In this document: one piece after another, positions 2,624-21,331 of the stretch | Layout: each line of letters starts with the position of its first letter | Numbering within the stretch: position 1 is the stretch's first letter | Assembly (NCBI GenBank): GCA_963709685.1 | Contig: CAVPXH010000020.1 | Location: 79,838 to 143,837 of the forward strand | From: an uncultured Actinomycetota bacterium | GTDB taxonomy: Bacteria > Actinomycetota > Actinomycetes > Propionibacteriales > Nocardioidaceae | Direction: 5' to 3' | DNA length: 64,000 nucleotides | The notes under the pieces: generated by a model | Told to the model about the DNA's origin: nothing | Seen by the model: the letters and a program-made list of their open reading frames with translations, nothing else | The model's database searches: none | Position numbers and translations under genes: made by a program

Positions 2624-3567
2624 ATGCGGGTTGCGTTGATGGTGACGTGTGTGAACGACGCGATGTTCCCCGATGTCGGCAGGGCGGTGGTGCGGCTGCT
2701 GCGCCGGCTCGGTGTGGAGGTGGACTTCCCGGCCGGGCAGGCGTGTTGTGGGCAGCCGATGGTGAACACCGGGTACTTCGACGAGGCGGTGCCGGTGGTA
2801 CGCAACTACGTCGAGGCGTTCGCGGGCTATCGACGCGGTGGTGGCGCCGTCGGGGTCGTGCGCGGGGTCGGCGCGGCACCAGCACGGCCTGGTCGCGCGG
2901 CGCTCGGGGGATCCGGGTCTGGTGGCGGCGGTGGAGTCGGCTCCGCCGACGTACGAGTTGTCGGAGTTCCTGGTCGACGTGCTGGGGGTGAGTGATGTGG
3001 GGGCGTCGTTCCCGCACACGGTGACCTACCACCCGACCTGCCACTCCTTGCGGATGCTCGGCGTGGGCGACCGGCCGCGGCGGCTGCTGGAGGCGGTGCG
3101 GGGGTTGCGGCTGGTGGACCTGCCGGCGGCGGAGGAGTGCTGCGGGTTCGGGGGGACGTTCGCGGTGAAGAACGCCGACGTCTCGGTGGCGATGGGCTCG
3201 GACAAGGCGCGGCACGTGCGCGACACCGGTGCGGAGGTGCTGGTGGCCGGGGACAGCTCGTGCCTGATGCACATCGGCGGGTTGCTCTCGCGGCAGCAGG
3301 CGGGGGTGCGGGTGCTGCACCTGGCGGAGGTGCTGGCCGCGACCGAGGGTGCGGTGGAGCCGGCCGCGGTGCTGGGCGCCGGCGCGGTGGAGTCTGCTTC
3401 GGGGCCGCGCCCGGAGCCGGGCGCCTTCGACAGCACCGGCGGCACCGGCGACACCGGCGGCACCGGCGGCACCGGCGGCACCGGTGAGCACCGGTTCCCG
3501 GTCGTCGAGCGGTCCTCGGTCGTCGAGCTTGTCGAGACGCCTCGACGGCGGAGGGGGCATCCGGTGA
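2624..3567 (+). CDS. lutA: Lactate utilization protein A (CCG-domain Fe-S protein), frameshifted near 2830; C-terminus uncertain
   Basis: MRVALMVTCVND...CCGQP in ORF 2591; continues in another frame as VVAPSGSCAG...YHPTCH...ECCGFGGTF in ORF 2838; a TGA overlapping the lutB GTG (GTGA, 3564-3567) suggests the true end. Confidence 0.85.
3432..3485 (+). repeat. Tandem 9-bp repeat (GGCACCGGC-like, about 5-6 copies) in the lutA-lutB linker
   Basis: gcaccggc ggcaccggc gacaccggc ggcaccggc ggcaccggc ggcaccggt read directly. Confidence 0.85.
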
Positions 3568-5070
3568 GCGCGACGTTCGTGGGGATGCCGGCGTTCCCGG
3601 CGGCGGCGCGGGCGGCGCTGGCCGACACCCAGCTGCGCTCCAACCTGGCGCACGCGACCTCGACGATCCGCGCGAAGCGGGGTGCGGTGGTCGCGGAGGT
3701 CGGGGACTGGGAGGAGCTGCGGGCCGCCGGCGCGGGCATCAAGGACAACACGCTGCTGCACCTCGACGAGCACCTGGTGCGGCTGGAGGAGGCGCTGACC
3801 GCGCGGGGTGCGGTGGTGCACTGGGCGCGGGATGCGCAGGAGGCGTGCCGGGTCGTCGCGGAGGTGGCCAAGGACCATGGCGTGGATGAGGTGGTCAAGG
3901 TCAAGTCGATGGCGACCGCCGAGATCGGGCTGAACGAGCACCTGGCCGCCCACGGGATCGCGGCGTGGGAGACGGATCTGGCCGAGCTGATCGTGCAGCT
4001 GGGGGAGGACCTCCCGTCCCACATCCTGGTGCCGGCGATCCACCGCAACCGGGCGGAGATCCGCCGGATCTTCGCCGAGCGGATGGCAGGCGCGGGCCGG
4101 GCGGCTCCTGAGGACCTGACCGATGAGCCGGCGCGGCTGGCGGAGGCGGCGCGGTTGCACCTGCGGGAGAAGTTCCTGCGCGCGAAGGTGGCGGTGAGCG
4201 GGGCGAACTTCGCGGTCGCGGAGTCCGGGACGCTGGTGGTGGTGGAGTCCGAGGGCAACGGGCGGATGTGCCTGACCCTGCCGGAGGTGCTGGTCTCGGT
4301 GGTGGGCATCGAGAAGGTGGTGCCGACCTTCGCCGACCTGGACGTGTTCTTGCAGCTGTTGCCGCGCTCGAGCACGGGGGAGCGGATGAACCCCTACACG
4401 TCGCTGTGGAACGGGGTGACGCCCGGGGACGGGCCGGCCGAGGTGCACGTGGTGCTGCTGGACAACGGCCGCACCCGGGCGTTGGCCGACGAGGTGGGCC
4501 GCCAAGCGCTGCGCTGCATCCGCTGCTCGGCCTGTTTGAACGTGTGCCCGGTCTATGAGCGCACCGGGGGGCATGCCTACGGGTCGGTGTACCCCGGGCC
4601 GATCGGCGCGATCCTGAACCCGCTGCTGAAGGGCGTCGGGGTCGATGAGCAGGTCGACTCGCTGCCGTACGCGTCGTCGTTGTGCGGGGCGTGCTTCGAG
4701 GCCTGCCCGGTCAGGATCGACATCCCCTCGGTGCTGGTGGACCTGCGCGCCCGGGTCGTCGATGCCCATCGCGGGACGGCGGTCACACGTCGGGGAGGCG
4801 GCGGCGATGAAGGCGGCCGCCTGGTCGTTCGGCTCCGGTGCCCGGCTCGGCGTGGTGGAGCGGGCGTCGGGGCTGGCCGGTCGGGTGGCCGGCCGCCTGG
4901 GCCGTCGTACCCTGCCCGGCGGGCGTCGGGCACTGTCCCGGCTGCCGTGGCCGGGCTCGAGGTGGACCGGCGCCCGGGACCTGCCCGCTCCACCGGCCGA
5001 GTCCTTCCGCGCGTGGTGGAGCCGCACCGACGGCGACCGCACGGACAGCCAGGGGGAGGGCGAGCGGTGA
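3564..5070 (+). CDS. lutB: Lactate utilization protein B (LUD + 4Fe-4S dicluster), frameshifted near 4780
   Basis: SATFVGMPAF start, KVKSMATAEI, ETDLAE, PSHILVPAIH, CIRCSACLNVCPVY and SSLCGACFEACPV; C-terminus (EAAAMKAA...PAPPAESFRAWW) lies in ORF 4645..5070. Confidence 0.9.
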
Positions 5071-5666
5071 GCGCGCGCGAGGACATCCTGGCCGCCGTAC
5101 GCCGGGCCACCGCGGGTGCGGACACGAGCGAGGTGCAGGTGCCGCGCGGCTACCGGGACCGTCCGGCACCCGCGGACGTGGTGGGCCTGTTCGCCGAGCG
5201 GGTCGCCGACTACCGCGCGGTGGTGGAACGCTGCAGCCTCGAGGACGTGCCGCAGCGGGTCGCGGCCGCGCTGGCCGACGCGGAGCGGGTGATCGTGCCG
5301 GCCGGCACGCCGTGGACGATGCCCGGGGCGCACGACGGGGACGGGTTGAGCGCCGCCGACCTCGACAGGTACGACGCGGTGCTCACCGCCGCGACCGTCG
5401 GGATCGCGGAGACCGGCACGATCGTGCTCACCCACGGCCCGGGCGAGGGCCGCCGCGCGCTGACCCTCGTGCCCGACCTGCACGTGTGCGTGGTCCGCGC
5501 CGACCAGGTCGTGCCCGGCGTCCCCGAGGCCATCGCCATGCTCGGCCCGGCTGCGACCCGGCCGCAGACCTGGATCAGCGGACCGTCGGCCACCAGCGAC
5601 ATCGAGCTGCGCCGGGTCGAGGGCGTCCACGGCCCCCGACACCTGCACGTCCTCGTCGCCGACTGA
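5067..5666 (+). CDS. lutC: Lactate utilization protein C (LUD domain)
   Basis: GTGA overlap with the lutB stop; MSAREDILAAVR...IAETGTIV...LTLVPDLH...ISGPSATSDIELRRVEGVHGP. Confidence 0.9.
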   Translation: MSAREDILAAVRRATAGADTSEVQVPRGYRDRPAPADVVGLFAERVADYRAVVERCSLEDVPQRVAAALADAERVIVPAGTPWTMPGAHDGDGLSAADLDRYDAVLTAATVGIAETGTIVLTHGPGEGRRALTLVPDLHVCVVRADQVVPGVPEAIAMLGPAATRPQTWISGPSATSDIELRRVEGVHGPRHLHVLVAD

Positions 5667-5885
5667 CCGCTCGGCGCGGATCAGCGCCGCGGCGCCTTGA
5701 TCGTGCACGAAACCGTCGCTTCGCCGGGCTGCTGGGTGCCCTGGCGCGGGGACAGGGCGCGGCCGCTGCCGCCCGCCTGGGCCGCCGATTCTCTGACCCG
5801 GCTCGCCTCCCTTTACCCTGCCGCGAGTGCCTGCCGGCGCCCGCGGGCGCCGGCGAGTGTCGCGGCCGGGTCCCGGCCGTCTCTC

Positions 5886-5935
5886 TTGACGTGTGACGAG
5901 GAGCACTATACGTTCATCTCAATGCCTATAGGATT
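5886..5935 (+). promoter_or_regulatory. Sigma70-type promoter with overlapping dyad (candidate GntR operator) for the fuconate operon
   Basis: TTGACG (5886-5891), 17 nt, TACGTT (5909-5914), then the near-palindrome AATGCCTATAGGATT (5921-5935). Confidence 0.65.
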
Positions 5936-5956
5936 CTGATTGAGAGGCTGCACATC

Positions 5957-7297
5957 GTGCCCACCGTCGCTTCGGTCGTCACCCAGGACGTCCGGTTCCC
6001 CACCTCCCTGGAGCTGGATGGCTCCGACGCCGTCAACGTCGATCCCGACTACTCGGCCGCCTACGTGACCGTCCGCCTCGACAACGGCGAGGAGGGCCAC
6101 GCCTTCGTCTTCACCTGTGGACGCGGCAACGACATCGTCACCCACGCGATGGACGTGTACGGCGAGCTGCTTGTGGGCCGCGACGCCGATGAGCTCGTCC
6201 ACGACCTCGGTGGCGCCTCGAAGCGGCTGATCCACGACTCCCAGATGCGCTGGCTCGGACCGGAGAAGGGCGTTTCCCAGATGGCCTGCGGCGCACTCGT
6301 CAACGCGTTGTGGGACCTGCGGGCCCGGCGTGAGAACAAACCCCTGTGGCTGTTGCTCGCCGAGATGTCGCCCGAGGAGCTCGTGAGCGTCGTCGACTTC
6401 ACCCACATCCGCAGCGCGCTCAGCCCGGAGCAGGCGCTGGAGATCCTGCGTCGTGGCGAGGAGGGCAAGGCCGAGCGGATCGCGTCGCTGAAGGCCGACG
6501 GCTTCCCCGCCTACACCACCTCCCCCGGGTGGCTCGGCTACAGCGACGAGAAGCTGGTGCGACTGTCCACGGAGGCGCTCGACGACGGCTTCTCGATGAT
6601 CAAGCTGAAGGTCGGCGGCAGCCTCGAGGACGACCGCCGGCGCCTGGGCCTCATGCGCAGCAACTTCCCCGGCGTCCCCGTCGCTGTCGACGCCAACCAG
6701 CGTTGGGATGTCGACGAGGCCGTCACGTGGATGAAGGAGCTCGCCGAGTTCGAGCCCTACTGGATCGAGGAGCCGACGAGCACCGACGACGTCCTCGGCC
6801 ACGCGACCATCCGCAAGGGCATCACGCCGGTGCGGGTCGCGACCGGCGAGGCGGTCGCCAACCGCATCGTGTTCAAGCAGTTGCTCGAGGCCGAGGCGAT
6901 CGACGTCATGCAGATCGACGCAACCCGGGTCGGCGGCATCAACGAGAACATCGCCAACCTCCTGCTCGCCGCGCGCTTCGGCGTGCCGGTCTGCCCGCAC
7001 GCCGGCGGTGTCGGCCTGTGCGAGCTGGTCCAGCACTACTCCTTCTTCGACTACGCGGCCGTCAGCGGCAGCCAGGACGGTCGCTTCATCGAGTACGTCG
7101 ACCACCTGCACGAGCACTTCGTCGAGCCGGCGCGGGTCCGCCGGGGCCGCTACGTCGCACCGACGCGGCCCGGGACCGGCGCGGAGATGCTCGCGCCGTC
7201 GCGGGAGCGGTGGACCTTCCCCGAGGGGTCCGGTTGGCGCGAGGTCGGCGAGCGAGCCGCAGTCACCGAGCCGCACATGACGCCTGCCGAGGTCTGA
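5957..7297 (+). CDS. L-fuconate dehydratase (enolase superfamily, FucD/ENOSF1 type)
   Basis: DVRFPTSLELDGSDAVNVDPDYSAAYV, RWLGPEKG, PAYTTSPGWLGYSDEK, KLKVG, VDANQ, WIEEPTS, ATGE, PHAGGVGLCE and EYVDHLHEHF are diagnostic. Confidence 0.92.
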   Translation: MPTVASVVTQDVRFPTSLELDGSDAVNVDPDYSAAYVTVRLDNGEEGHAFVFTCGRGNDIVTHAMDVYGELLVGRDADELVHDLGGASKRLIHDSQMRWLGPEKGVSQMACGALVNALWDLRARRENKPLWLLLAEMSPEELVSVVDFTHIRSALSPEQALEILRRGEEGKAERIASLKADGFPAYTTSPGWLGYSDEKLVRLSTEALDDGFSMIKLKVGGSLEDDRRRLGLMRSNFPGVPVAVDANQRWDVDEAVTWMKELAEFEPYWIEEPTSTDDVLGHATIRKGITPVRVATGEAVANRIVFKQLLEAEAIDVMQIDATRVGGINENIANLLLAARFGVPVCPHAGGVGLCELVQHYSFFDYAAVSGSQDGRFIEYVDHLHEHFVEPARVRRGRYVAPTRPGTGAEMLAPSRERWTFPEGSGWREVGERAAVTEPHMTPAEV

Positions 7298-7337
7298 GGC
7301 GCCACAGTCCAGCAGCACTACACACATCGAAGGGAAC

Positions 7338-8177
7338 ATGATGGTTGGGGTAAGGAAGAAGATCCTGGCCGGGGTCGTCGCGACGCTCGCGCTCGTCACC
7401 GCGGGCTGCACGTCGAGCGGCGCGAACGCAAGCGGCGGGGGCGGTGGGACCACCTCCGCCTCGGACAGTCATCTGACGCAGGTGCTCAAGTCGCACACGA
7501 TCCGCATCGGCGTGCAGTCGGAGGCCGCCCCGTGGGGTGTGCAGAAGTCCGACGGCAGCTTCGAGGGGTTCGACATCGACATCGCGAAGGCGCTCGCTGA
7601 CGCGCTCGGCGCGAAGCCCAAGTTCATCGCCGTCACCAACGAGTCGCGCATCCCCATGCTGCAAGCGGACAAGGCGGACGTGATGATCGCGTCGTTCACC
7701 GCCACCGACGAGCGCGCGCAGCAGGTCGCCTTCACGATCCCCTACGCCGCCGGCGGCACGTTGATCGCGGTCCCGGAGAACTCGTCGATCCGCAGCTACG
7801 GCGACCTGGCCGGCAAGTCGGTCTCCGCCAGCCGCGGCAGCATCGGTGAGCAGATCCTCGAGTCGCACTTCCCGAAGGCGAAGCCGGCGCTGTTCAACTC
7901 CTTCGCCGACTCCGTCCAGGCGCTCAAGAGCGGCAAGGTCGACGCGCTGATCGAGAACAACGTGATCGTCCCGCAGCTGGTGCAGAAGGACTCCAACCTG
8001 CGCGTGCTGCAGGGCCCGGTCCTCGAACCGTCGCTGATGTCCATGGGCATCAAGCAGGGTGACCAGGTGTGGATGAACTACCTGAACAACTTCATCCGCA
8101 ACTACAACGTGTCGGGCCAGAACGACACGGCCAGCAAGAAATGGCTGAGCCAGCCGATGCCCGACTTCCTCAAGTAG
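7338..8177 (+). CDS. Polar amino-acid-type ABC transporter substrate-binding lipoprotein (PBP family 3)
   Basis: Lipobox LVTAGC; GFDIDIAKALA, RIPMLQADKADVMIASFTATDERAQQVAFTIPY and ALKSGKVDA. Confidence 0.88.
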   Translation: MMVGVRKKILAGVVATLALVTAGCTSSGANASGGGGGTTSASDSHLTQVLKSHTIRIGVQSEAAPWGVQKSDGSFEGFDIDIAKALADALGAKPKFIAVTNESRIPMLQADKADVMIASFTATDERAQQVAFTIPYAAGGTLIAVPENSSIRSYGDLAGKSVSASRGSIGEQILESHFPKAKPALFNSFADSVQALKSGKVDALIENNVIVPQLVQKDSNLRVLQGPVLEPSLMSMGIKQGDQVWMNYLNNFIRNYNVSGQNDTASKKWLSQPMPDFLK

Positions 8178-8187
8178 CAGCCGTGGT

Positions 8188-8218
8188 GTGCGGCAGGGCG
8201 ACCCCCGCCCTGCCGCAC
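8188..8218 (+). terminator. Perfect 13-bp hairpin between SBP and permease (attenuator or mRNA stabiliser)
   Basis: GTGCGGCAGGGCG-acccc-CGCCCTGCCGCAC; no U-tract. Confidence 0.6.
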
Positions 8219-8239
8219 CCGGACCGGTAGGACCCAGCC

Positions 8240-8911
8240 ATGACCTTCTATTTCGGCGATCTGCTGCCGTACGCCCCCCAGCTGGCCGCGGCGCTGTGGA
8301 CCAGCATCTACATCACCCTGATCGCGATGGCCGTCGGCAGCGCGCTCGGCGTGGTGCTCTACCTCGGCAAGACCGCCTCGCTGCCCGTCGTACCGGCGCT
8401 GAGCGCGGCCTACATCGAGGTCTTCCGCAACACCCCGCTGCTGGTGCAGCTCTACCTCATCTACTTCGGCCTGCCGGAGGCGGGCGTGAACCTGAACCCC
8501 ACGTGGGCGGGTGTGGTCGCGCTGACGCTGAACAACTCCGCCTACACCGCCGAGATCTACCGTGCCGGGTTCCAGTCGGTGCCCCATGGCCTGCGCGAGG
8601 CGGGCCACGCGCTCGGCATGAAGAGCGCCCAGGTGTTTCGCTACATCGTCTTCATGCCGGCCACCCGCAACGTCTTCCCGGCGCTGACCAACCAGTTCAT
8701 CCTGCTGTTCCTGGCCTCGTCGATCGCCTCGATCATCGGACTGCCCGAGCTGATGAACTCGATCCTCAACATCAACAACCAGACCTACCGCACGTTCGAG
8801 ATCCTCGCCGTCGGCGGCCTGCTCTACTTCGTCGTCTCCGCGGTCCTGGTGCTCGCATCAAGACTCACCGAGTCCTACTTCTTCCGCTGGGGGGGCAGGA
8901 ACCATGCTTAG
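8240..8911 (+). CDS. Amino-acid ABC transporter permease (HisM/GlnP type)
   Basis: YIEVFRNTPLLVQL, SAYTAEIYRAG and EAGHALG EAA loop. Confidence 0.9.
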   Translation: MTFYFGDLLPYAPQLAAALWTSIYITLIAMAVGSALGVVLYLGKTASLPVVPALSAAYIEVFRNTPLLVQLYLIYFGLPEAGVNLNPTWAGVVALTLNNSAYTAEIYRAGFQSVPHGLREAGHALGMKSAQVFRYIVFMPATRNVFPALTNQFILLFLASSIASIIGLPELMNSILNINNQTYRTFEILAVGGLLYFVVSAVLVLASRLTESYFFRWGGRNHA

Positions 8912-9614
8912 GTCGTTCAACTGGCACGACTTCGAGTCGCTGCTGCGCGGCGCAGGCTGGACGCTCGCGCTGTGCGTGACGTCCGGAGCCCTCGGCACCG
9001 TCCTCGGGATGCTGCTGGCGCTCGCGGCCACGTCGCCGCTGCGCGTCGCGCGGTGGCTGGCGACGGTGTACGTCTACTTCGTGCGCGGCATCCCGCTGCT
9101 GATCCTGGTGTTCTTCGCCTACTTCGGGATCCCGCTGATGTTCCCCGACCTGGGGTTGTCGGCCTTCGCCACCGCGGTGATCGCGTTGACCGCCTTCAGT
9201 GCCGCCTACATGGCCGAGATCTTCCGCGGCAGCATCAACGCGGTCCCCCGGGGCCAGTTCGAGGCAGCCTCCGCGCTGGGGCTGGGCTACGCGAACAAGT
9301 ACCGCTTCGTGGTGCTGCCCCAGGCGATGCGGATCGCGGTGCCGCCCGCGATCGGCTTCCTCATCGCGCTGATCAAGGACTCCTCGCTGGTCACCGTGAT
9401 CGGATTCGTGGAGCTGACCCACGCCGGCACGATCGTCAGCAACCTCACCGCAGACCCCATCACGACGTACGCCGTCGTGGCCGCCCTCTACTTCGTCATC
9501 TGCTACGGCGTCTCCCGGCTGGGCCGCTGGTACGAGAAGCGCAGCAGCGCGCACGACCGTGTCCCCGACGTCGAAGAGCAGCCGCAAGCCCTCCAGCTCG
9601 AAGGTGTCGCATGA
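8904..9614 (+). CDS. Amino-acid ABC transporter permease
   Basis: [30 protein letters not shown] and KDSSL. Confidence 0.9.
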
Positions 9615-10333
9615 TCATCGTGAAGGACCTCCACAAGAAGTTCGGCGGCAACGAGGTGCTCAAAGGCATCGACTGCCACGTCGACGAGCAGGAGGTGGTC
9701 TGTCTCATCGGGCCGTCCGGCTCCGGCAAGAGCACGCTGCTGCGCTGCCTCAACGGTCTGGAGTCGATCACCTCGGGATCCGTGATGGTGAACGGCCACG
9801 AGCTGACCCACGGCAGGACCGACATCAACGCGGTGCGCCGCGAGGTCGGGATGGTCTTCCAGCACTTCAACCTCTTTCCGCACCTGAAGGTCGTCGACAA
9901 CGTGATGCTCGCGCCGATGAAGGTGCTCAAGACCTCGAAGGACGAGGCCCGCGAGCGGGCGCTGGCGCTGCTGGGCAAGGTGGGGCTCGCCGACAAGACC
10001 CATGCCTACCCGAGCAGCCTGTCGGGCGGGCAGCAGCAGCGGGTCGCGATCGCCCGGGCGCTTGCCATGAACCCCGCGCTGATGCTCTTCGACGAGCCCA
10101 CCTCGGCGCTGGACCCGGAGATTGTCGGGGAGGTGCTGACCGTCATGAAGGACCTGGCCCGTGAGGGCATGACGATGGTCGTGGTCACCCACGAGATGGG
10201 CTTCGCCCGGGAGGTGGCCGACCGTGCGATCTTCATGGATGGTGGTGTCGTCGTCGAGGAGGGGCCGCCCTCGCAGGTCTTCGGCGAGCCCCAGCACGCC
10301 CGGACACGCGACTTCCTGAGCAAGGTGCTGTGA
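9611..10333 (+). CDS. Amino-acid ABC transporter ATP-binding protein (GlnQ type)
   Basis: ATG at 9611 within ORF 8972; [35 protein letters not shown] and VVTHEMGFA. Confidence 0.93.
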
Positions 10334-11535
10334 CGATGAGTGACCGACCTACGGCCGGCACGACCGCCGTGGACGAGGAGGTGGCGCGGGCGCTGCCCAC
10401 CGACGGGTGCGCGGGAACGCTCGTCGGCCGGGTCTGGGACCCGGCCGGCCCGGGGCCCTCGTCGGTCCTCGTGCGTGGCGACGGCGTCTACGACCTGAGC
10501 GCGTCGTACCCCACGGTGCGGGATCTGTGCGAGGAGCCGGACCCGGCCTCGGCAGCGCGCCGGGCCGCCGGGAGGCGCCTGGGCGGCTTCGCCGACGTCC
10601 TGGGCAACACCAGTGCCTCCACCCGCGACGAGGATCGCCCGTGGCTGCTCGCGCCCGTCGACCTGCAGACGCTCAAGGCCGCGGGCGTCACGTTCGCGGT
10701 GTCGATGATCGAGCGGGTGATCGAGGAGCGGGTGCGCGGCGACTTCGAGGCCGCGACGAAGATGCGGGTGCAGATCCTCGACGAGATCGGCACCGACCTC
10801 GCGGAGGTCCGGCCGGGGTCGGAGGAGGCGATGCGGCTCAAGCGGTTCCTCACCGAGCGCGGCCTGTGGAGCCAGTACCTCGAGGTCGGCATCGGGCCGG
10901 ACGCCGAGATCTTCACCAAGGCGCCCACGCTGGCGGCGGTCGGTACGGCGACGCCGGTGGGTGTCCCCGCGTCCTCGACGTGGAACAACCCCGAGCCCGA
11001 GGTCGCGCTGGCGGTCTCGTCGCAGGGGCGGGTCGTGGGCGCCATGCTCGGCAACGACGTGAACCTGCGCGACGTCGAGGGCCGGTCGGCACTGCTGCTG
11101 CCGCAGGCGAAGGACAACAACGCCTCCTGCGCGCTCGGCCCCCTGCTGCGGCTGTTCGACGACGGCTTCGACCTCGACACCGTGCGGGCGATGACGGTGC
11201 GCCTCGAGATCGACGGGACCGACGGGTTCCACCTCGACGGCGTCTCGGAGATGACGCAGATCAGCCGGGACCCCCTGGCCCTGGTCGACCAGCTTCTGGC
11301 GACGCACCAGTACCCGGACGGGGTGGTGCTGATGCTGGGCACCATGTTCGCCCCCGTGGTGGACCGCGAGGTGGCGGGCATGGGCTTCACCCACAAGGAG
11401 GGCGACCGCGTGCGGATCTCCGCCGACCAGCTCGGCACCCTGACCAACGAGGTCAGGTACTGCCACACCTGCGACCCCTGGTCCTTCGGCCTGCGGGCCT
11501 TGATGACCAACCTGGCCGAACGCTCGCTGCTCTAG
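10330..11535 (+). CDS. FAH-family protein, 2-keto-3-deoxy-pentonate dehydratase-like (XylX/KdaD type)
   Basis: [47 protein letters not shown] and [11 protein letters not shown]. Confidence 0.75.
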
Positions 11536-11599: not shown

Positions 11600-13114
11600 T
11601 TGATCACCACCACGAACCCGCGCACCGGGGCGACCACCGAGATCGAGGTCGAGGAGACCCCGACCGCCGAGGTGGAGCGGCTCGCCCACCAGGCCCAGGA
11701 GGCGGTGCCCGCGCTGGAACGGCTCGGGCGCGAGGGACGGGCGCGCCTGCTCGAGGCGATCGCCGACGCCCTCGAGGCCGCGCGTGAGGACCTCGTCCGG
11801 ACCGCGGGGCAGGAGACCGGCCTCGCGGACGGACGGCTGAACGGGGAGCTGAGCCGCTCGGCGTTCCAGTTCCGCCTCTTCGCCGAGGCGGTGCGCGAGG
11901 GCGGCTACCTGGAGGCCATGATCGACCACGCCGCCGACACCCCGCTCGGCCCCGGTCCGGACCTGCGGCGGATGCTGCTGCCGATCGGGCCGGTGGCCGT
12001 GTTCGGGGCCAGCAACTTCCCGTTCGCGTTCTCGGTGGTCGGGGGAGACACCGCCTCGGCGCTGGCCGCCGGGTGCCCGGTCCTGATCAAGGCCCACCCC
12101 TCGCACCCGCTCACCTCGCTGCGCTCCTTGGAGGCGATCGGGGAGGCGCTGCGCGCTGCCGGTGCGCCGGAGGGTGCCGCCTGCCTGGTCTTCGGCCAGG
12201 ACGCCGGCTCGGCGCTGGTCGGCCACCCGCTGGTGCGGGCGGTCAGCTTCACCGGCGCGCTGTCGACCGGTCGCGTGCTGCAGGACCTCATCAACCGCCG
12301 CGAGGACCCGATCCCGTTCTACGGCGAGCTGTCCAGCCTCAACCCGCTGGTGGTCACCCCGGGTGCCGCCCGCGCCCGGACCGGGGAGATCGCCCAGGGG
12401 CTCTTCACGTCGGTGACCGGCTCCGGTGGCCAGCTGTGCACCAAGCCGGGCATCGCGTTCGTCCCGTCGGGTGAGGAGGGGGACCGCCTCGTCGAGGAGC
12501 TGCGCGCGCTCACCGAGAAGGGCGAGGGGCACGTGCTCCTCAACTCCCGGATCCGGGAGGCGTACGACGCGATCGCCGACCGGCTCGTGCGCGGCGGCGC
12601 GCCGGTGGCGGCCCGCGGCCCCGAGGCCGACGGCGACGGGTTCGTCGTGCCGCCGACCCTGCTGACCACCCAGGCGGCGGACATGTCCGAGGCGCTCGCG
12701 GAGGAGTGCTTCGGCCCGCTGGTGATCGTGGCGCGCTACGACGACGTCAAGCAGGTCGCGGCGGCGGTCGAGCGGATGCCGGCCTCGCTGACGGCCACGG
12801 TGCACGCCGAGGACGTCGAGTCCGCGCTGGCTGCCGAGCTGTCCCGGATCCTCGAGCCGCACGCCGGACGGCTGGTGTTCAACGGCTACCCGACCGGCGT
12901 GCGCGTCTCGTGGGCGCAGCACCACGGGGGCCCGTGGCCCTCGACCAACTCCCAGCACACCTCGGTCGGCGTCACCGCGATCCGCCGCTTCCTGCGGCCC
13001 TTCGTGTGGCAGAGCGCGCCCGAGTCCGTGCTTCCCGAGGAGCTGCGCGAGGACTACCGCGCGATCCCGCGCCGGGTCGACGGCACCCTGGTGCTCCCGG
13101 AGGGCGTCCGATGA
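11600..13114 (+). CDS. Aldehyde dehydrogenase, alpha-ketoglutaric semialdehyde dehydrogenase type
   Basis: VFGASNFPFAFSVVGGDTASALAAGCP, GELSSLNP, GQLCTKPG, EECFGP and HHGGPWP. Confidence 0.85.
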   Translation: MITTTNPRTGATTEIEVEETPTAEVERLAHQAQEAVPALERLGREGRARLLEAIADALEAAREDLVRTAGQETGLADGRLNGELSRSAFQFRLFAEAVREGGYLEAMIDHAADTPLGPGPDLRRMLLPIGPVAVFGASNFPFAFSVVGGDTASALAAGCPVLIKAHPSHPLTSLRSLEAIGEALRAAGAPEGAACLVFGQDAGSALVGHPLVRAVSFTGALSTGRVLQDLINRREDPIPFYGELSSLNPLVVTPGAARARTGEIAQGLFTSVTGSGGQLCTKPGIAFVPSGEEGDRLVEELRALTEKGEGHVLLNSRIREAYDAIADRLVRGGAPVAARGPEADGDGFVVPPTLLTTQAADMSEALAEECFGPLVIVARYDDVKQVAAAVERMPASLTATVHAEDVESALAAELSRILEPHAGRLVFNGYPTGVRVSWAQHHGGPWPSTNSQHTSVGVTAIRRFLRPFVWQSAPESVLPEELREDYRAIPRRVDGTLVLPEGVR

Positions 13115-13962
13115 GGGTGGCCCGGCTCGGCCCCGTCGGTGGCGAGCGTCCCGTCCTCCTCGACGGGGACCGGGCGTTCGACCTCGGCGGCGTGGCCGAG
13201 GACATCGACGCCGGCTTCCTCGCCGCCGGCGGCCTGGAGCGGGCCCGCCGGGCGTGGGAGGCCGGCGACCTCCCCGAGGTGCCGGACGCCTCGACCCTGC
13301 GGACCGGTGCCCCGGTGGCCCGCCCCAGCGCGGTGCTGTGCGTCGGCATGAACTACGCCGCGCACGCCGCGGAGTCCGGCGCCGCCCCGCCGGAGGTGCC
13401 GATCGTCTTCTCGAAGACCCCGAACACCGTCGTCGGCCCCGACGACCCGGTGACCGTCCCGCCCGGCAGCAAGAAGACCGACTGGGAGGTCGAGCTCGGT
13501 GTGGTGATCGGCCGCCGCGCCGCCTACCTGTCCTCGCGCGAGGAGGCGATGGCGCACGTCGCCGGTTTCGTGCTCTGCAACGACCTCTCGGAGCGGGCCT
13601 TCCAGCTCGAGGAGTCCGGCGGGCAGTGGGGCAAGGGCAAGTCCGCGCCGGGCTTCTGCCCGACCGGTCCCTGGCTGGTGACGCCCGACGAGGTCGACCA
13701 CCACGCGCTGCGGCTGCGCAGCTGGGTCAACGGCGAGCCGCGGCAGGACTCCAGCACCGCCGACATGGTCTTCGACGTCGAGCACCTGGTCTGGGACCTC
13801 AGCCAGTACCTCACCCTCGAGCCGGGGGACCTGATCCTCACCGGCACGCCGGAGGGTGTAGCCCTCTCCGGCCGGTTCGACTACCTCGCGCCCGGCGACG
13901 TCGTCGAGCTCGAGATCGAGGGGCTCGGCCGGCAGCGCCAACAGATGGTGGCCTTCCGGTGA
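13111..13962 (+). CDS. FAH-family hydrolase (2,4-diketo-3-deoxy-L-fuconate hydrolase-like)
   Basis: ATGA overlap at 13111; CVGMNY, KTDWEVEL, NDLSER, WGKGKS and GDLILTGTP. Confidence 0.85.
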   Translation: MRVARLGPVGGERPVLLDGDRAFDLGGVAEDIDAGFLAAGGLERARRAWEAGDLPEVPDASTLRTGAPVARPSAVLCVGMNYAAHAAESGAAPPEVPIVFSKTPNTVVGPDDPVTVPPGSKKTDWEVELGVVIGRRAAYLSSREEAMAHVAGFVLCNDLSERAFQLEESGGQWGKGKSAPGFCPTGPWLVTPDEVDHHALRLRSWVNGEPRQDSSTADMVFDVEHLVWDLSQYLTLEPGDLILTGTPEGVALSGRFDYLAPGDVVELEIEGLGRQRQQMVAFR

Positions 13963-14705
13963 GCGGGTGCGACGGGCTGGTAGCCCTGGTCACCGGTGGT
14001 GCTTCGGGCATCGGCCAGGCGGCGGCCGCAGCGCTTGGCCGCGAGGGCGCCCGGGTTGCCGTGCTGGACCGAGACCCCGCCGACGAGTCGGAGGGGATGC
14101 TGGCCGTGCGGGCCGACGTCACCGACGACGCCTCCGTGCGGGCCGCGGTGGACGCGGTGGTCGACCGGTTCGGCCGGCTCGACGTCCTGGTCAACAACGC
14201 AGGGGTGGGCGCCCAGGGCGGGGTCGAGGACAACGACGACGGCGAGTGGGTGCGCGTCCTGGACGTGAACCTGCTCGGAATGGTGCGGGTGACCCGCGCC
14301 GCCCTGCCGCACCTGCGCCGCTCGCCCTGCCCGGCCATCGTGAACACCGCGTCGGTCGCGGCCGAGGTGGGCCTGCCGGAGCGGGTGCTCTACAGCGCCA
14401 GCAAAGGCGCGGTCGTCGCAGCCTCGCGGGCCATGGCCGCGGACCTGATCGCCGAGGGCATCCGCGTCAACTGCGTGAACCCGGGCACCGCGGACACGCC
14501 CTGGATCGGCCGGCTTCTGTCCCGGGCCGACGACCCGGCGGCGGAAAGGGCGGCGCTGGAGGCACGGCAGCCGCACGGGCGGCTGGTCTCCGCCGACGAG
14601 GTGGCCGCGGCGATCTGCGCGCTGGCCGCGCCGGGCGCCGGCTCCATCACGGGGACCTGCCTCACGGTCGACGGTGGGCTGACCGCGCTGCGGCTGCCGC
14701 GCTGA
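13959..14705 (+). CDS. SDR oxidoreductase (2-keto-3-deoxy-L-fuconate dehydrogenase-like)
   Basis: GTGA overlap; TGGASGIG, NNAG, YSASKG, IRVNCVNPGTADTPW and ARQPHGRL. Confidence 0.85.
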   Translation: MSGCDGLVALVTGGASGIGQAAAAALGREGARVAVLDRDPADESEGMLAVRADVTDDASVRAAVDAVVDRFGRLDVLVNNAGVGAQGGVEDNDDGEWVRVLDVNLLGMVRVTRAALPHLRRSPCPAIVNTASVAAEVGLPERVLYSASKGAVVAASRAMAADLIAEGIRVNCVNPGTADTPWIGRLLSRADDPAAERAALEARQPHGRLVSADEVAAAICALAAPGAGSITGTCLTVDGGLTALRLPR

Positions 14706-14910: not shown

Positions 14911-15642
14911 GTGTCGACGAAGTCAAGCTCCCCGGCATCCGAGTCAGGGGCCGCCGTCAGCAAGGTCTACACGGCCCTGCGCATGCCGATCGTCGACGGC
15001 GAGATCGCACCCGGAACGCGCATCAACATCGACGCCGTCGCGCGTGACCTGGGCGTCTCGCAGACTCCGGTGCGCGAAGCGCTGCAGCGGCTGGAAGCCG
15101 ACGACCTCCTGGTCTACACACCCGGCCGCGGCTACCGCACCACGCCCATGCTCGATCTCGCCGGCCTGCGGTCGGTCTTCGAGTTCCGGTTGCTGGTGGA
15201 GCCGTGGGCGGCGAGGACGGCGGCCAGCGACCGGCTCGCGAACCCGGCCACGGCCCTCGACGAGGAGATCGGCTCCTTCGAGCGCGTGGCACACGCGGGC
15301 GGGGACGTGCGCCAGCAGATGCTCACCCACGACACCCGGTTCCACGACATGATCCTCGCCGCGGCCGGTAACGAGGTGGTGCGCCATGCCTACTCGCAGA
15401 CGCACTGCCACCTCCACGTCTTCCGTCTCTACCCGGTCGACGTCGACGGCGCGCTCACCATCACCGAGCACCGCACCATCTGGGAGGCGGTCAAGGCCGG
15501 CGACCCGAACGCGGCCGAGGAGGCCATGGCCGAGCACATCAGGAACTCCTACCAGCGCTCGGCACGGGCCTTCGACGGCCGCGCGCCGGAGGTGGAGACG
15601 CTGGCGCGCACCGGGAGCACCCGGGCGCGCGAGGTCGACTGA
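14911..15642 (+). CDS. GntR-family transcriptional regulator with FCD domain
   Basis: ARDLGVSQTPVREALQRL HTH; FCD features FHDMI and AMAEHI. Confidence 0.9.
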   Translation: MSTKSSSPASESGAAVSKVYTALRMPIVDGEIAPGTRINIDAVARDLGVSQTPVREALQRLEADDLLVYTPGRGYRTTPMLDLAGLRSVFEFRLLVEPWAARTAASDRLANPATALDEEIGSFERVAHAGGDVRQQMLTHDTRFHDMILAAAGNEVVRHAYSQTHCHLHVFRLYPVDVDGALTITEHRTIWEAVKAGDPNAAEEAMAEHIRNSYQRSARAFDGRAPEVETLARTGSTRAREVD

Positions 15643-15702: not shown

Positions 15703-17499
15703 TCAGTGGTTGTGCCGGGGGACACCCTTGGTCTGGGCGACTCGCTGGTAGGCCACCGCCGGTTCCAGCACCATCCCGGTGGACATCTGACCGACCATCG
15801 AGCGCTGGATCTCCTGCCACGGCGTCTGCGACTCCGGCACGGGGAACGGCGTCTCGTCGAGCTGCGCGCGGCGGGCGGCCAGCTCGGCCTCGTCGAGGAG
15901 CACGTCCGCGCGGCCCCGGTCGAGGTCGATGCGCACCGTGTCCCCGGTGCGCAGCAGCGCCAGCCCGCCGCCCACCGCTGCCTCCGGGGAGGCGTTGAGG
16001 ATGGAGGGAGAGCCGGAGGTGCCCGACTGGCGCCCGTCGCCGACGCAGGGCAGCGCGTGGACCCCCTTCCTGATCAGGTCGGCGGGGGGCTGCATGTTCA
16101 CCACCTCCGCGGCGCCGGGGTAGCCGACCGGCCCGTTGCCCCGGATGAACAGCACGCAGCCGTCGTCGATACCGAGCTCCGGGTCGTCGATGCGACGGTG
16201 GTACTCCTCGGGGCCGTCGAAGACGACGGCCCGGCCCACGAAGCAGTTCGGGTGATCGGCGTCGGACAGGTACCGCTCGCGGAACGCCGGTGAGATGACG
16301 CTGGTCTTCATGATCGCGCTGTCGAAGAGGTTCCCGGTGAGGACGACGAAGCCGGCGTCCGGGGCGAGCGCGTCGGCGAAGGCGCGGATGACGACGCCGT
16401 CGGGCGCGGTGTCGCGGCAGTTCTCCCCGAGGGTGCGGCCGTTGACGGTCATCGCCCCCTCATGGATGAGGCCGTGGCGCATCAGCTCGTGAACCACGGC
16501 CGGCACGCCGCCGGCGCGGTGGTACTCCTCGCCGAGGTACTGGCCGGCCGGCTGCACGTCCACGAGCAGCGGCACGTGGTGCCCGAGGCGCTGCCAGTCC
16601 TCGACCTCGAGGGGCACACCGACGTGGCGGGCGATCGCGTTGACGTGGATCGGGGCGTTGGTCGAGCCGCCGATCGCCGAGTTCACCACCACCGCGTTCT
16701 CGAACGCCTCGCGGGTGAGGATGTCCGAGGGCTTGAGGTCCTCGGAGACCATCTCCACGATCCGTCGGCCGGTCAGGTAGGCGACGCGGGCGCGGTCGCG
16801 ATGCGGGGCCGGGATGGCGGCAGAACCGGGCAGGCTCATGCCGAGCGCCTCCGCGAGCCCGTTCATCGTGGACGCCGTACCCATCGTGTTGCAGTGCCCG
16901 GGCGACGGCGCCGAGGAGGCGACCAGCTCGACGAACTCGGCGTCGTCGATCTCGCCGGCCGCCAGCATCTCCCGGGCCTTCCACACGATCGTGCCCGAGC
17001 CGGTCCGGTTCCCGTCGTGCCAGCCGTTGAGCATCGGGCCGCCGGACAGCACGATCGCGGGAATGTTCACCGTGGCCGCGGCCATCAGGCACGCCGGCGT
17101 CGTCTTGTCGCAGCCGGTGGTGAGCACCACGCCGTCGAGCGGGTACCCGTGGAGCACCTCCACCAGCCCGAGGTAGGCCAGGTTCCGGTCGAGCGCAGCG
17201 GTGGGACGGCGTCCGGTCTCCTGGATCGGGTGCACCGGGAACTCGAAGGCGATCCCGCCCATCTCCCGGATGCCTTCCCGGACGCGGTCGGCGAGCTGCA
17301 GGTGGTGGCGGTTGCACGGGGACAGGTCGGAGCCGGTCTGGGCGATGCCGATGATCGGCTTGCCCGACTGCAGCTCCTCCCGGGTCAGCCCCCAGTTCAT
17401 GTAGCGCTCGATGTAGAGAGCGGTCATCCCGGGGTTCTCCGGATTGTCGAACCACTCCTGGCTGCGCAGCCGGCGGCGGTCTGGTGTCTGCCCGTTCAT
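15703..17499 (-). CDS. IlvD/Edd-family sugar-acid dehydratase (L-arabinonate/D-xylonate dehydratase type)
   Basis: [45 protein letters not shown] and NASPEAA. Confidence 0.9.
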
Positions 17500-17561
17500 C
17501 TTCTCTCCTCGTGGGTGCGGTTGCGGTGGTGCGGCCCTGGGCGCGTTCCCTCGCCGGGAGG

Positions 17562-18431
17562 TCAGTCCTCGAACCCGAGGCGCACGAGCGCCGCGGACAC
17601 GTCGTAGGTCACGGGAGGGGGCAGGAGCGGCGGGCGCACGGTCCCCATCCCGACGCCGTGCCGCGCCTGCGCGAGCCGCTTGAGCAGTCCCGGTGCGGCG
17701 TACTCCTTGGTCATGGCCCGCACCGCGCGCAGGTGGGTGGAGAGCCGCTCGGCTCGTGCGGTCTCACCGTCTCGCACCCGCCGGTGCAGCTCCACGACGT
17801 GCTCGGGAACGATGTTCGCGAGCGCTGAGATGCCGCCGTCGGCGCGCGGCAGCCGCCCCGGCAGGTCGTCCTCCGTGCCGAGCAGAACGCCCTGGCCGGC
17901 CGCCCGGACGGTGGCGGAGTAGCCAGCGTCTCCCGCTGAGTCCTTCACGCCCCACAGCGGCAGCGAGGTCACCACCTCGGCGGGGACGGGGACCGCGTAC
18001 TTGGGGATGTGGTAGGCCAGCACGGGATGCCGGGAGACCTCGAGGACTCGCTCGTAGAAGCGGCGCAGGCCCTCCGGCTCCACGGGCTTGAAGTAGTACG
18101 GCGGGAGCACCAGTACCGCGGTGACCGGCAGGTCACCGAGACGTGCCAGCAGCTTCACCGAGTCGGGAAGGTTGCCCTCGGCGACCGTGGGAAGCAGGCC
18201 GATGCCGAGATCCGCCTCGGCCAGCGCCTCGAGCACCCGGATCTTCTCCTCGGTGCCGACCGAGGGTCCCTCGCCGTTGGTACCGAACGGCACCACCCCG
18301 TCCACACCCTGGTCAGCAAGCCAGCGCACGTGCGCGCAGTAGGCCTCCACGTCGAGCGTGCGGTCCGCGTCGTCACGGAACGGGGTCACGTTGGCGGCGT
18401 AGACGCCACCGAGCGGATGGGGCACGGTCAT
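17562..18431 (-). CDS. DHDPS/NanA-family aldolase or dehydratase (KDG aldolase-like)
   Basis: ATG at 18431; [23 protein letters not shown] and GVKDSAG (Schiff-base Lys). Confidence 0.85.
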
Positions 18432-19390
18432 CTCCCGAGCTGGGTGGTGTCGGACATGAAGTGGGCGAGCTCCTCGGCGGACGGCAGGCCCTCGTAGTCG
18501 CCGAGCGTGGTCACGCACAGCGCGCCCATCGCGTTGGCGAGCCGAAGTCGCTCCTCCGGGCCGGCGCCGCGCAGCAGTCCGGCGAGGTAGCCGGCGGCGA
18601 AGGCGTCTCCCGCACCGATCGGGTCCACCTGCTGCACGGCGAAGGGCGCGCCTTCCCAGCGCTCGCCGTCACTCCAGAGGGTGGCACCGTCACGACCTCG
18701 CTTGACGACCACCTCCCGCGGCCCCGCCTCGCCGAGCCGGCGCACCGTCTTCTCCTCGTCGTGCCAGTCCCACAGCACCTCGGCCTCCTCCACGCTGACG
18801 AACAGCACGTCGACGTGCGGCAGCACGGTCTGCACGGCGGCACGTGCCTCGGCGGGCCCCCACAGGCGGGAGCGGTAGTTCACGTCGAAGCTCACCTGGA
18901 CGCCGTGGCGGTGCGCCTCCTGCGCGGCCCAGGTGACGAAGTCGGCGCAGTCCGGGGACAGGGCCGGCGTCACACCGCTGAGATGCAGGAACCTGGCGCC
19001 CTCCAGGCAGCGGAGGTCCAGGCCACCGGGGGCGAGCGTCGAGGCGGCGGAGCCCGCGCGGTAGTAGTACACCCGCACCTGCCCGGCGACCTCCTCGCGG
19101 AAGTACAGCCCCGTGGGCCGCCGCGCGACCCGGCGGACGGCGCTGGTGTCCACGCCCTCGGCGCGGATCCGGTCGAGGACCAGGTGTCCCGGCTCGTCGT
19201 CGCCGAGCAGGCCGGCCCAGGCCGACCGGACCCCGAGCCGGGCCAGCGCGATGGCGACGTTCGACTCGGCTCCGCCGGTCTTCAGCAGCACCGAGGGTGT
19301 GTGCCGCAGCCGCCCGGGCGCAGGCGGCACGGCCAGCATCATGCTCTCGCCGATGCACACCACGGCGGGGCTCGAGTCCAGCACGCTCAT
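18428..19390 (-). CDS. kdgK: PfkB-family sugar kinase (2-keto-3-deoxygluconate kinase-like)
   Basis: CIGESM, GGAESNVA, YYRAGSAAS, FDVNYRSRLW and DPIGAGDAFAAG. Confidence 0.8.
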   Translation of the reverse strand: MSVLDSSPAVVCIGESMMLAVPPAPGRLRHTPSVLLKTGGAESNVAIALARLGVRSAWAGLLGDDEPGHLVLDRIRAEGVDTSAVRRVARRPTGLYFREEVAGQVRVYYYRAGSAASTLAPGGLDLRCLEGARFLHLSGVTPALSPDCADFVTWAAQEAHRHGVQVSFDVNYRSRLWGPAEARAAVQTVLPHVDVLFVSVEEAEVLWDWHDEEKTVRRLGEAGPREVVVKRGRDGATLWSDGERWEGAPFAVQQVDPIGAGDAFAAGYLAGLLRGAGPEERLRLANAMGALCVTTLGDYEGLPSAEELAHFMSDTTQLGR

Positions 19391-20657: not shown

Positions 20658-20660
20658 GAG

Positions 20661-21257: not shown

Positions 21258-21331
21258 CAAAGCTGCGCTCCTTCGTGTTGCGGGGGTGGGGCGCCAGGTG
21301 CCCCACCCCCGCAGCCGGGTCGGCCGGGCCG

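Follow-up and report, generated by a model that had tools for sequence, protein, structure and literature searches.

The stretch of DNA analysed here (the window), 64,000 nucleotides (nt) of contig CAVPXH010000020.1 from an uncultured bacterium of the Nocardioidaceae, encodes an ATP-binding cassette (ABC) importer of the polar amino acid transport (PAAT) type within an operon of sugar-acid catabolism genes. We propose that this importer probably carries a sugar acid (an aldonate) that would feed the L-fuconate dehydratase (FucD) encoded beside it. The compound is most likely L-fuconate and/or D-arabinonate, a narrower claim that we hold with less confidence, and L-galactonate is possibly a further cargo. 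These proposals come from sequence comparison: the substrate-binding protein (SBP) has kept the residues that grip a carboxylate and lost the one that grips an alpha-ammonium group, its gene stays close to a FucD gene in several actinobacterial families, and both genes share a candidate operator. All coordinates are positions in the window, which has a G+C content of about 72%, and genes were called by Pfam and NCBIfam scans together with direct reading of the sequence.

The importer genes and their operon

The initial annotation placed an SBP, two permeases and a GlnQ-like ATPase at 7338-10333, and all four genes are found there on the + strand:

7338 (or 7341)-8177, + strand, substrate-binding lipoprotein (Pfam SBP_bac_3, PF00497, 116 bits)
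8240-8911, + strand, ABC permease 1 (BPD_transp_1, 67.5 bits; TIGR01726, HEQRo_perm_3TM, 104.7 bits, cut-off 42.2)
8904-9614, + strand, ABC permease 2 (BPD_transp_1, 67 bits; TIGR01726, 96.2 bits, cut-off 42.2)
9611-10333, + strand, ABC ATPase of the GlnQ/HisP type (ABC_tran, 133.9 bits)

Over its full length the ATPase scores 340.7 bits against the GlnQ model (cut-off 379), 324 bits against TcyN and 308 bits against EhuA. Because all equivalog cut-offs are missed, it is, judged by these scores, a member of the GlnQ/HisP family and the orthologue of no named system. The best equivalog model for the SBP reaches 132 bits against a cut-off of 256. Its signal peptide ends in VTAGC, the Cys of which is invariant in 12 aligned homologues, and a Gly/Ser-rich linker is present; the combination of signal peptide, lipobox Cys and linker is typical of lipoprotein binding proteins of Gram-positive bacteria. 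The nearest relatives of the SBP come from Nocardioidaceae, and their public names read 'polar amino acid transport system' or 'transporter substrate-binding domain-containing protein', or say nothing specific.

The + strand carries, in this order, LutA/B/C-type genes, FucD, the SBP, the two permeases, the ATPase, a long FAH-family protein, an aldehyde dehydrogenase (ALDH), a short FAH-family protein, a short-chain dehydrogenase/reductase (SDR) and a GntR/FCD regulator, with a spacer of 290 nt between the LutA/B/C-type genes and FucD. The gene scans bear out the earlier placement of the importer between FucD and XylX-like FAH/ALDH genes. The ATPase and long FAH genes, which had been described as translationally coupled, are separated by 2 nt, with the ATPase stop codon at 10331-10333 and the FAH ATG at 10336. 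This ATG starts the called product of 399 residues, and an alternative GTG at 10330 would make a GTGA overlap. Overlaps are also seen between permease 1 and permease 2 (8 nt), permease 2 and the ATPase (ATGA), ALDH and the short FAH (ATGA), and the short FAH and the SDR (GTGA).

The ligand pocket of the SBP

The AlphaFold2 (AF2) model of the mature SBP domain has a pLDDT of about 90 and is matched by Foldseek to ArgBP, AncCDT-1 and AncQR with TMt values of 0.87-0.94. The pocket was aligned by HMMER to AncCDT-1 (5t0w), AncQR (4zv1), T. maritima ArgBP (6svf) and GlnPQ SBD2 (6h30), and these alignments are confident across the relevant strand. Residue numbers refer to the 278-residue form of the SBP, and the census of the clade covers 117 homologues of at least 230 residues.

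On the carboxylate side, the T-x-T-x-x-R motif is kept as Thr120, Thr122 and Arg125, with the Arg present in 117/117 homologues and the Thr in 111/117. On the amine side, Asn206 aligns with the Asp of all four amino acid-binding references, that is, with Asp170 of AncCDT-1, which is part of the alpha-amino acid-binding motif (bioRxiv 10.1101/157495). Of the 117 homologues, 104 have Asn at this position, 5 have Ser, 4 have Leu and 2 have Ile, and none has Asp. Two further residues are invariant throughout the census, namely Glu205, where the references have Thr, Leu or Asp, and Arg165, which precedes the conserved Gly of the second domain and corresponds to Leu, Ile or Asn in amino acid binders. 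In the AF2 model residues 202-206 form a beta-strand, followed by a helix. The PAAT architecture (SBP fold, two TIGR01726 permeases and GlnQ-type ATPase) is present; the alpha-amino acid-binding Arg and Asp motif is not complete, the Asp being gone. The SBP thus appears to retain the fold and the carboxylate grip without the amine grip, as a 2-hydroxy acid would need, and the missing alpha-ammonium Asp makes it unlikely that a common amino acid is bound tightly.

Linkage of the importer to FucD across genomes

A pattern scan of one genome per species gave 27 loci from actinobacteria whose SBP shows 47% identity or more, and the window proteins were mapped onto these by tblastn. In 23 of them SBP identity reaches at least 53%, and 22 of these carry a homologue of FucD no further than 10 kb from the SBP gene; the 23rd (L014) is a 5.6-kb contig that starts inside the ALDH gene and ends just beyond the SBP gene. 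The hosts belong to the Nocardioidaceae, Intrasporangiaceae, Micrococcaceae and Microbacteriaceae, with one unclassified Actinomycetota genome, and cultured carriers include Arthrobacter globiformis, Pseudarthrobacter humi, Intrasporangium chromatireducens and Xylanimonas allomyrinae. Most loci also hold the long FAH, ALDH, short FAH, SDR and GntR/FCD genes, in at least five gene orders, including those of Nocardioidaceae/Intrasporangium, three arrangements in Micrococcaceae and that of Microbacteriaceae. The smallest conserved unit, seen in L010 and L015, is GntR-FucD-SBP-permease-permease-ATPase.

Each of the two genes is rare: the SBP occurs in 3/401 sampled genomes of the class and in 0/20 other family members in that sample, and FucD in 6/81 genomes of the family, a count that takes in one unpublished genome (G421) used for no other result. 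Since two rare genes are repeatedly adjacent in shuffled orders, their linkage is not a chance event, and a tie between SBP orthologues and dehydratase genes, on which the first reading of the locus had hinged, is what the neighbourhoods and the common operator described below display. No SBP copy at E <= 1e-40 was found on plasmids. One family member (L085) has a set of FucD, SDR and short FAH next to a double-ATPase gene, which we take for a sugar-type ABC system; we regard a FucD set beside such a system as the usual arrangement.

Five Micrococcaceae loci (L007:13125-14720, L009, L011, L017 and L025) lack FucD in the cluster and have a UxaA/GarD-family (GD_AH) dehydratase gene directly 3' of the ATPase gene, whose product scores 414 bits against the galactarate dehydratase model, under its cut-off. 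The same loci carry, 1-3 kb on, a FucD paralogue (about 55% identical) that has a GntR gene and an operator to itself and is followed by an SDR, a 2-keto-3-deoxy-6-phosphogluconate (KDPG) aldolase and a PfkB kinase. The D-arabinonate dehydratase of Watanabe and colleagues is probably a UxaA/GarD-family enzyme as well. If this is right, the swap of dehydratases beside a constant transporter suggests that the cargo consists of aldonates with the L-fucono/D-arabino configuration. The D-arabinonate dehydratase is a novel, non-enolase dehydratase, which is also active on D-altronate and whose relatives include L-fuconate and L-galactonate dehydratases (Watanabe et al., 2019, PMC6336799).

A common candidate operator and a presumed regulator

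The following regulatory features lie upstream of FucD and at the end of the operon:

5886-5934, + strand, promoter-like region upstream of FucD (-35 box TTGACG at 5886-5891; TANNNT-type -10 candidate TACGTT at 5909-5914)
5923-5934, + strand, palindromic operator candidate TGCCTATAGGAT upstream of FucD, found by direct reading
14911-15642, + strand, GntR/FCD regulator, presumed operon repressor (GntR, 55.5 bits; FCD, 75.5 bits)

The -35-like box and the -10 candidate are spaced by 17 nt. The palindrome TTCCTATAGGAT, with at most 2 mismatches, occurs 30-100 nt 5' of the FucD gene and/or the SBP gene in 22/24 orthologous loci, and the layout TTGAC(G/C)...TTCCTATAGGAT repeats in those loci. The window holds 2 matches against 0.15 expected, and the density of the palindrome is 34 sites in 422 kb of orthologous loci as compared with 10 sites in 717 kb of unrelated loci. 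In Micrococcaceae loci, FucD and the transporter form separate transcription units, mostly each with its own copy of the palindrome; therefore, the transporter belongs to the FucD regulon. Homologues of the GntR/FCD protein (56-75% identity) adjoin the FucD or SBP gene in most loci, and this adjacent protein presumably binds the palindrome and controls both FucD and the transporter.

Between the SBP and permease 1 genes lies another candidate regulatory element:

8188-8218, + strand, hairpin (perfect 13-bp GC-rich inverted repeat, 5-nt loop, no T-run)

A stretch of 76 nt around it folds with -39.2 kcal/mol (z -3.7; 0/200 shuffles as stable), and the hairpin may be an mRNA stabiliser or a partial attenuator that raises the level of the SBP mRNA over the rest.

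A second operator-like site, ATCGTATAGGAA, was noted at 22594-22605, with 2 mismatches to ATCCTATAGGAT. It lies between the DctP gene of a TRAP transporter and an enolase-superfamily gene at 22782-23987 and could be part of the same GntR regulon or of a related one.

The catabolic enzymes of the operon

The enzymes encoded on both sides of the importer genes are:

5957-7297, + strand, L-fuconate dehydratase (FucD), enolase superfamily (X. campestris FucD 2hxt/1yey, 569 bits, E 4e-170)
10336-11535, + strand, long FAH of 399 residues, XylX/KdaD-like, putative 2-keto-3-deoxy-D-pentonate dehydratase (PDB 9kkt, 408 bits)
11600-13114, + strand, ALDH, putative alpha-ketoglutarate semialdehyde dehydrogenase (KGSADH) (Aldedh, 178 bits)
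13111-13962, + strand, short FAH hydrolase of 283 residues, 2,4-diketo-3-deoxy-acid type (FAA_hydrolase, 236 bits)
13959-14705, + strand, SDR, putative 2-keto-3-deoxy-acid 4-dehydrogenase (adh_short_C2, 189 bits)

The match of the first of these proteins to 2hxt spans residues 1-429, with K218, K220, D248, E274, E301 and H351 identical, and by this match it is a true orthologue of X. campestris FucD. Yew and colleagues reportedly assigned in 2006 the role of general base to Lys220 (of a KxK motif), that of general acid to His351 and that of Mg ligands to Asp248, Glu274 and Glu301. The same enzyme is said to accept L-galactonate, D-arabinonate, D-altronate, L-talonate and D-ribonate as well.

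The long FAH had zero NCBIfam matches, and its names in protein databases are all generic; its best structural match, 9kkt, is an FAH-family protein without a named function, and its C-terminal domain gives 68 bits to 2-keto-3-deoxy-D-arabinonate dehydratase (KdaD) of S. solfataricus (2q18). The ALDH resembles the NADP-dependent ALDHs 1eyy (354 bits) and 3v4c (337 bits) and stays far below the KGSADH equivalog models (85 bits, cut-off 770; 98 bits, cut-off 750); the putative KGSADH role is assigned because its gene adjoins that of the XylX-like FAH, as is the case in 18 loci. The short FAH aligns over its full length with L-2,4-diketo-3-deoxyrhamnonate hydrolase of the LRA6 type (8gsr, 209 bits), and reaches 264 bits against NF053535 (cut-off 500). 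For the SDR, which is paired with the short FAH in 17 loci, PDB searches gave generic matches only, including structures related to glucose 1-dehydrogenase, and the 'glucose 1-dehydrogenase' subfamily model gives 198 bits (cut-off 215).

The operon is likely to carry two lower branches for a 2-keto-3-deoxy acid, one leading to pyruvate and lactate and one of the Weimberg type, the former being proposed because a short FAH and SDR module is present downstream. In Route III, a dehydrogenase and a hydrolase yield pyruvate together with L-lactate from a 6-deoxy-hexonate or glycolate from a pentonate, and in Route II (Weimberg) a dehydratase and a semialdehyde dehydrogenase convert a pentonate to 2-oxoglutarate (Watanabe et al., 2019, PMC6336799). 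The earlier description of the downstream genes as Weimberg-type enzymes would suit the long FAH and ALDH pair and is incomplete, in that a putative Route III pair of SDR and diketo-hydrolase, as in non-phosphorylative L-fucose/L-rhamnose breakdown, is also there; the short FAH gene was not listed in it. L-Fuconate and D-arabinonate share the configuration at C2-C4, and each would use one of the two lower branches.

Proposed mechanism

We propose that the lipid-anchored SBP captures the acid outside the cell, with the carboxylate held by the Thr120/Arg125 motif, and that Glu205-Asn206 and Arg165 would bind the 2-hydroxyl group and the polyol chain in place of the ammonium-binding Asp. By homology, the two permeases and the GlnQ-like ATPase would move the acid inward, where FucD would dehydrate it to a 2-keto-3-deoxy acid. 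This intermediate could then undergo oxidation by the SDR, after which the short FAH would cleave it to pyruvate and L-lactate (or glycolate). In the case of a C5 acid, dehydration by the XylX-like FAH and oxidation by the ALDH would lead to 2-oxoglutarate instead. A GntR/FCD repressor seated on the palindrome over the promoter might govern FucD and the transporter jointly.

Related transporter clades

In a tree built from 66 SBPs encoded by the fetched loci, all actinobacterial members fall into one clade (SH-aLRT 92), which is sister to an alphaproteobacterial clade. The groups are listed with their pocket residues at positions 120/125/165/205/206:

Clade A: 23 loci, L082 and the window; FucD or GD_AH dehydratase, FAHs, ALDH, SDR and GntR; pocket TRRE followed by N or S
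Clade B: L020, L021, L023 and L024; SBP 47-51% identical; pocket TRRE followed by S or G
Clade C: L086:4622-11214 and L087:6644-14154; pocket TRRES
Alphaproteobacterial sister clade: L040, L041, L043, L050, L053 and L055-L058; pocket SRR, then A or V, then A

Clade B transporters have KDPG aldolase and PfkB kinase as neighbours in L020 (locus at 3547-10589), L023 and L024, and hexulose-6-phosphate-synthase-like and 6-phospho-3-hexuloisomerase-like genes in L020, L021 and L024, with an IclR regulator in L020; L023 has a D-2-hydroxyacid dehydrogenase instead of the synthase- and isomerase-like genes. In clade C, the neighbours are a GntR/FCD regulator, an Amidohydro_3 protein of 530 residues and a galactonate-dehydratase-like enzyme of the enolase superfamily (200 bits to 3sjn), joined in L087 by KDPG aldolase and PfkB kinase; the presence of the amidohydrolase might mean that the substrate is N-acylated or a lactone. 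The sister clade, found in Xanthobacter, Sinirhodobacter, Methylopila, Kaistia, Mycoplana and Shinella (for example L040:4903-14244 and L041:10001-19603), adjoins GD_AH (GarD/UxaA-family) dehydratases, and several of its loci also have a dihydrodipicolinate synthase (DHDPS)-family gene and a KGSADH-like ALDH. In the Sinirhodobacter locus L041, the ATPase gene is followed by genes for a long FAH with 56% identity and for a short FAH. The clade's set of GD_AH dehydratase, DHDPS-type and KGSADH-like genes matches the galactarate/glucarate route, yet it comes with an 'amino acid' importer. The SBPs in the data set that retain the Asp (from Chloroflexota, Campylobacter, Firmicutes and some Actinomycetota) have no such acid-sugar neighbours.

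One might speculate that a whole lineage of 'polar amino acid' importers switched to sugar acids by losing the Asp and keeping the carboxylate Arg. This lineage would comprise the actinobacterial clade with Thr-Arg-Arg-Glu-(Asn/Ser/Gly) and the alphaproteobacterial clade with Ser-Arg-Arg-(Ala/Val)-Ala, with sub-clades tuned to L-fuconate/D-arabinonate, to acids of the 2-keto-3-deoxygluconate (KDG) type, to galactonate-like acids and to aldarates. We consider this combined proposal evenly poised between right and wrong.

Alternative cargoes

Several points weigh against an aldonate as the cargo, or leave it less sharply defined. All nearest solved structures of the SBP found with the AF2 model and Foldseek are alpha-amino acid or opine binders, and the invariant Glu205 beside the lost Asp could still hold an amine, such as that of an amino-sugar acid. 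The loci were fetched with two peptide patterns of the SBP family and form a biased sample; they are mutually related and not independent of one another, and the linkage is a pattern with no statistical test behind it. FucD is reportedly promiscuous, so that the exact acid is not fixed, and the SDR might be an aldose 1-dehydrogenase instead of a 4-dehydrogenase. Lactonase and mutarotase, listed as missing in the initial annotation, are indeed absent from the cluster. The absence of an aldose dehydrogenase, which it had also listed, is not strictly shown because the SDR could be one. Its view that the imported substrate is already an acid nevertheless agrees with the conserved dehydratase linkage, the shared operator, the kept carboxylate Arg and the absence of lactonase and mutarotase genes.

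It is unlikely that the importer serves another acid of the same pathway area, such as a 2-keto-3-deoxy acid, an aldaric acid bound with the help of Arg165, or L-lactate or glycolate. Such a cargo would suit Arg165, an extra invariant cationic residue, and the Lut genes just 5' of the operon in the window; clade B, which has KDG kinase and KDPG aldolase and no aldonate dehydratase, suggests keto-deoxy-acid uptake by some relatives, and the GarD-like, KdgD-like and KGSADH-like genes of the proteobacterial sister clade fit a galactarate/glucarate route. However, clade A always comes with a co-located and co-regulated aldonate dehydratase, which would be pointless for a keto-deoxy acid or lactate, the window enzyme keeps the FucD catalytic set and scores 569 bits to FucD as compared with 99 bits to talarate/galactarate dehydratase, and the Lut linkage is not conserved in other loci. 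Less likely again is a nitrogen-bearing sugar-acid derivative, a 2-amino-2-deoxy-aldonate or an opine/Amadori-type compound, for which Glu205, invariant and next to the lost Asp, would act as the amine binder. The opine/Amadori binders NocT and SocA have the same fold, the Amidohydro_3 gene of clade C could encode a deacylase, and a PAAT-type ABC system is said to be genetically tied to glucosaminate uptake in Pseudomonas. Against this, FucD requires a 2-hydroxy acid, no nitrogen-removing enzyme was seen in the conserved gene set of clade A, and the minimal unit of FucD, transporter and regulator is without any enzyme to take off nitrogen. Searches by tblastn with the window proteins and Pfam scans of selected open reading frames, the only ones made, turned up no conserved deaminase, ammonia-lyase, aminotransferase, opine oxidase or deglycase. 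Of the sugar acids, amino-sugar acids and opine/Amadori conjugates suggested at the outset, a plain sugar acid is favoured because the conserved core consists of GntR, FucD (or a UxaA/GarD-type dehydratase) and the transporter, with no nitrogen-removing enzyme, and the nitrogen-bearing classes are disfavoured.

A neutral cargo, L-fucose or D-arabinose, would require that the SDR is an aldose 1-dehydrogenase and that the lactone opens spontaneously or through an unlinked lactonase, and we regard it as less likely still. In its favour, the SDR comes near the cut-off of the 'glucose 1-dehydrogenase' model and resembles structures related to that enzyme, and the genome has four Amidohydro_2 genes, all on other contigs. 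However, the carboxylate-binding Arg and Thr are invariant and nearly invariant, respectively (117/117 and 111/117), we know of no neutral-sugar ligand for the SBP_bac_3 fold, and no mutarotase was found. The SDR is, moreover, always paired with the diketo-acid hydrolase, as in a 4-dehydrogenase step, and L010 and L015 have FucD and the transporter with no SDR within reach. RbsD/FucU and GH29 had 0 matches in the genome, which is 92% complete. Least likely of all, and highly improbable in our view, is an ordinary importer of amino or imino acids, for example hydroxyproline, that merely happens to sit in the operon. The family models and the fold are those of a polar amino acid transporter, and a KGSADH-like ALDH is shared with hydroxyproline catabolism, which ends at alpha-ketoglutarate semialdehyde. 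Nonetheless, the alpha-ammonium Asp is found in 0/117 members, the FucD linkage extends across five families with at least five gene orders and a common operator, and no hydroxyproline epimerase, D-hydroxyproline dehydrogenase or deaminase belongs to the conserved set. We rejected hydroxyproline catabolism, since the minimal loci lack the ALDH and no further gene for this pathway is conserved.

Neighbouring genes in the window

Upstream of FucD, the window contains:

2838-5666, + strand, LutA/LutB/LutC-type L-lactate utilisation genes (CCG, LUD and Fer4 domains)

These genes fit L-lactate as a product in this strain. They were not found beside the operon in any other locus and are specific to the window, and LutABC was rejected as a conserved part of the unit. 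LutA-like (CCG), LutB-like (LUD and 4Fe-4S) and LutC-like (LUD) sequences lie in a single open frame of 966 codons (2766-5666, + strand). The LutB C-terminal domain PF11870 (31 bits) is found in a different frame at 4630-5070, where the main frame is rich in Arg, Gly and Pro and looks out of frame. This could reflect a frameshift (an assembly error or a pseudogene), a LutA-LutB fusion, or both.

On the - strand, a second set of sugar-acid genes at 15703-19708 converges on the GntR gene. It encodes a dehydratase of the IlvD/EDD family (1052 bits to subfamily NF009560), a DHDPS-family protein and a PfkB kinase, and the genes of a tripartite ATP-independent periplasmic (TRAP) transport system come next. 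The large TRAP permease DctM is split over two frames of this strand, 19387-21306 and 19710-20657, with profile positions 1-298 in one and 300-413 in the other and a break near 19710-19760; its neighbours are DctQ (20661-21392) and DctP (21332-22624). Either a frameshift or an error in sequencing accounts for the split, and it is the second case of this kind within 20 kb. Taken with the operon that begins at 22782, this region of the contig forms an island of sugar-acid catabolism that has two or more different uptake systems.

Comparison with known systems

The importer resembles PAAT systems such as HisJQMP, GlnHPQ, ArtPIQMJ, TcyJLN, EhuABCD and NocT/OccJ in its four-part architecture, its SBP fold, its HEQRo_perm_3TM permeases and its GlnQ/HisP-type ATPase, and it keeps their carboxylate-binding Thr...Arg motif. 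Unlike in these systems, the Asp is replaced, Glu205 and Arg165 are invariant, no equivalog model is reached, and the genomic partners are acid-sugar enzymes and not amino acid enzymes. A precedent for a move of the SBP_bac_3 fold from alpha-amino acids to other carboxylic acids is provided by Pu1068 and AncCDT-2. Pu1068 (SAR11_1068) is an SBP_bac_3 protein encoded beside ABC permease genes that binds no amino acid and binds carboxylates weakly, and in Pu1068 and AncCDT-2 (PDB 5hmt, 5kkw) amino acid binding has been lost and weak binding of carboxylates or sulfonates is seen (bioRxiv 10.1101/157495). The SBP of the window matches these proteins with only 73 bits. In the CDT lineage Asp170 is still present, with the substitutions Q100K and L198K proposed as its electrostatic shield (bioRxiv 10.1101/157495), whereas in the SBP described here the Asp itself is replaced and the genomic context names a candidate ligand class.

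With regard to the enzymes, the operon is similar to clusters for non-phosphorylative catabolism of L-fucose and D-arabinose, namely that of FucD in X. campestris and those in Herbaspirillum and Paraburkholderia (PMC6336799), with which it has FucD and the putative Route III and Route II pairs in common. The clusters described by Watanabe et al. (2019, PMC6336799) take the free sugar as their starting point and include a dehydrogenase, a lactonase and a putative sugar (ABC-type) transporter, whereas the window cluster has no lactonase or mutarotase and comes with a PAAT-type importer. Sugar-acid transporters of the TRAP, major facilitator superfamily (MFS) and carbohydrate uptake (CUT) types, for example DctPQM at 19387-22624 in the window, have presumed substrates of the same chemical class, but the proteins are unrelated, and the ABC system would give ATP-driven, high-affinity uptake.

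A full-text literature search revealed no description of a PAAT-type sugar-acid importer, although one may exist beyond the literature searched. If our proposal is true, a sugar acid would be the first ligand of its class for the polar amino acid ABC family. It would add a ligand class to a textbook family, and if the whole lineage has switched, many 'amino acid ABC transporter' labels beside acid-sugar dehydratases would be wrong. Genome annotation is at its weakest in areas such as transporter specificity, and if the prediction holds, a kept carboxylate Arg, a lost alpha-ammonium Asp and an acid-sugar dehydratase as neighbour could together serve as a rule for re-annotation. The importer would also be a natural example of a pocket retargeted from amino acids to hydroxy acids and would suggest that these soil actinobacteria scavenge sugars in an already oxidised form, as aldonates released by other microbes, instead of the sugars themselves.

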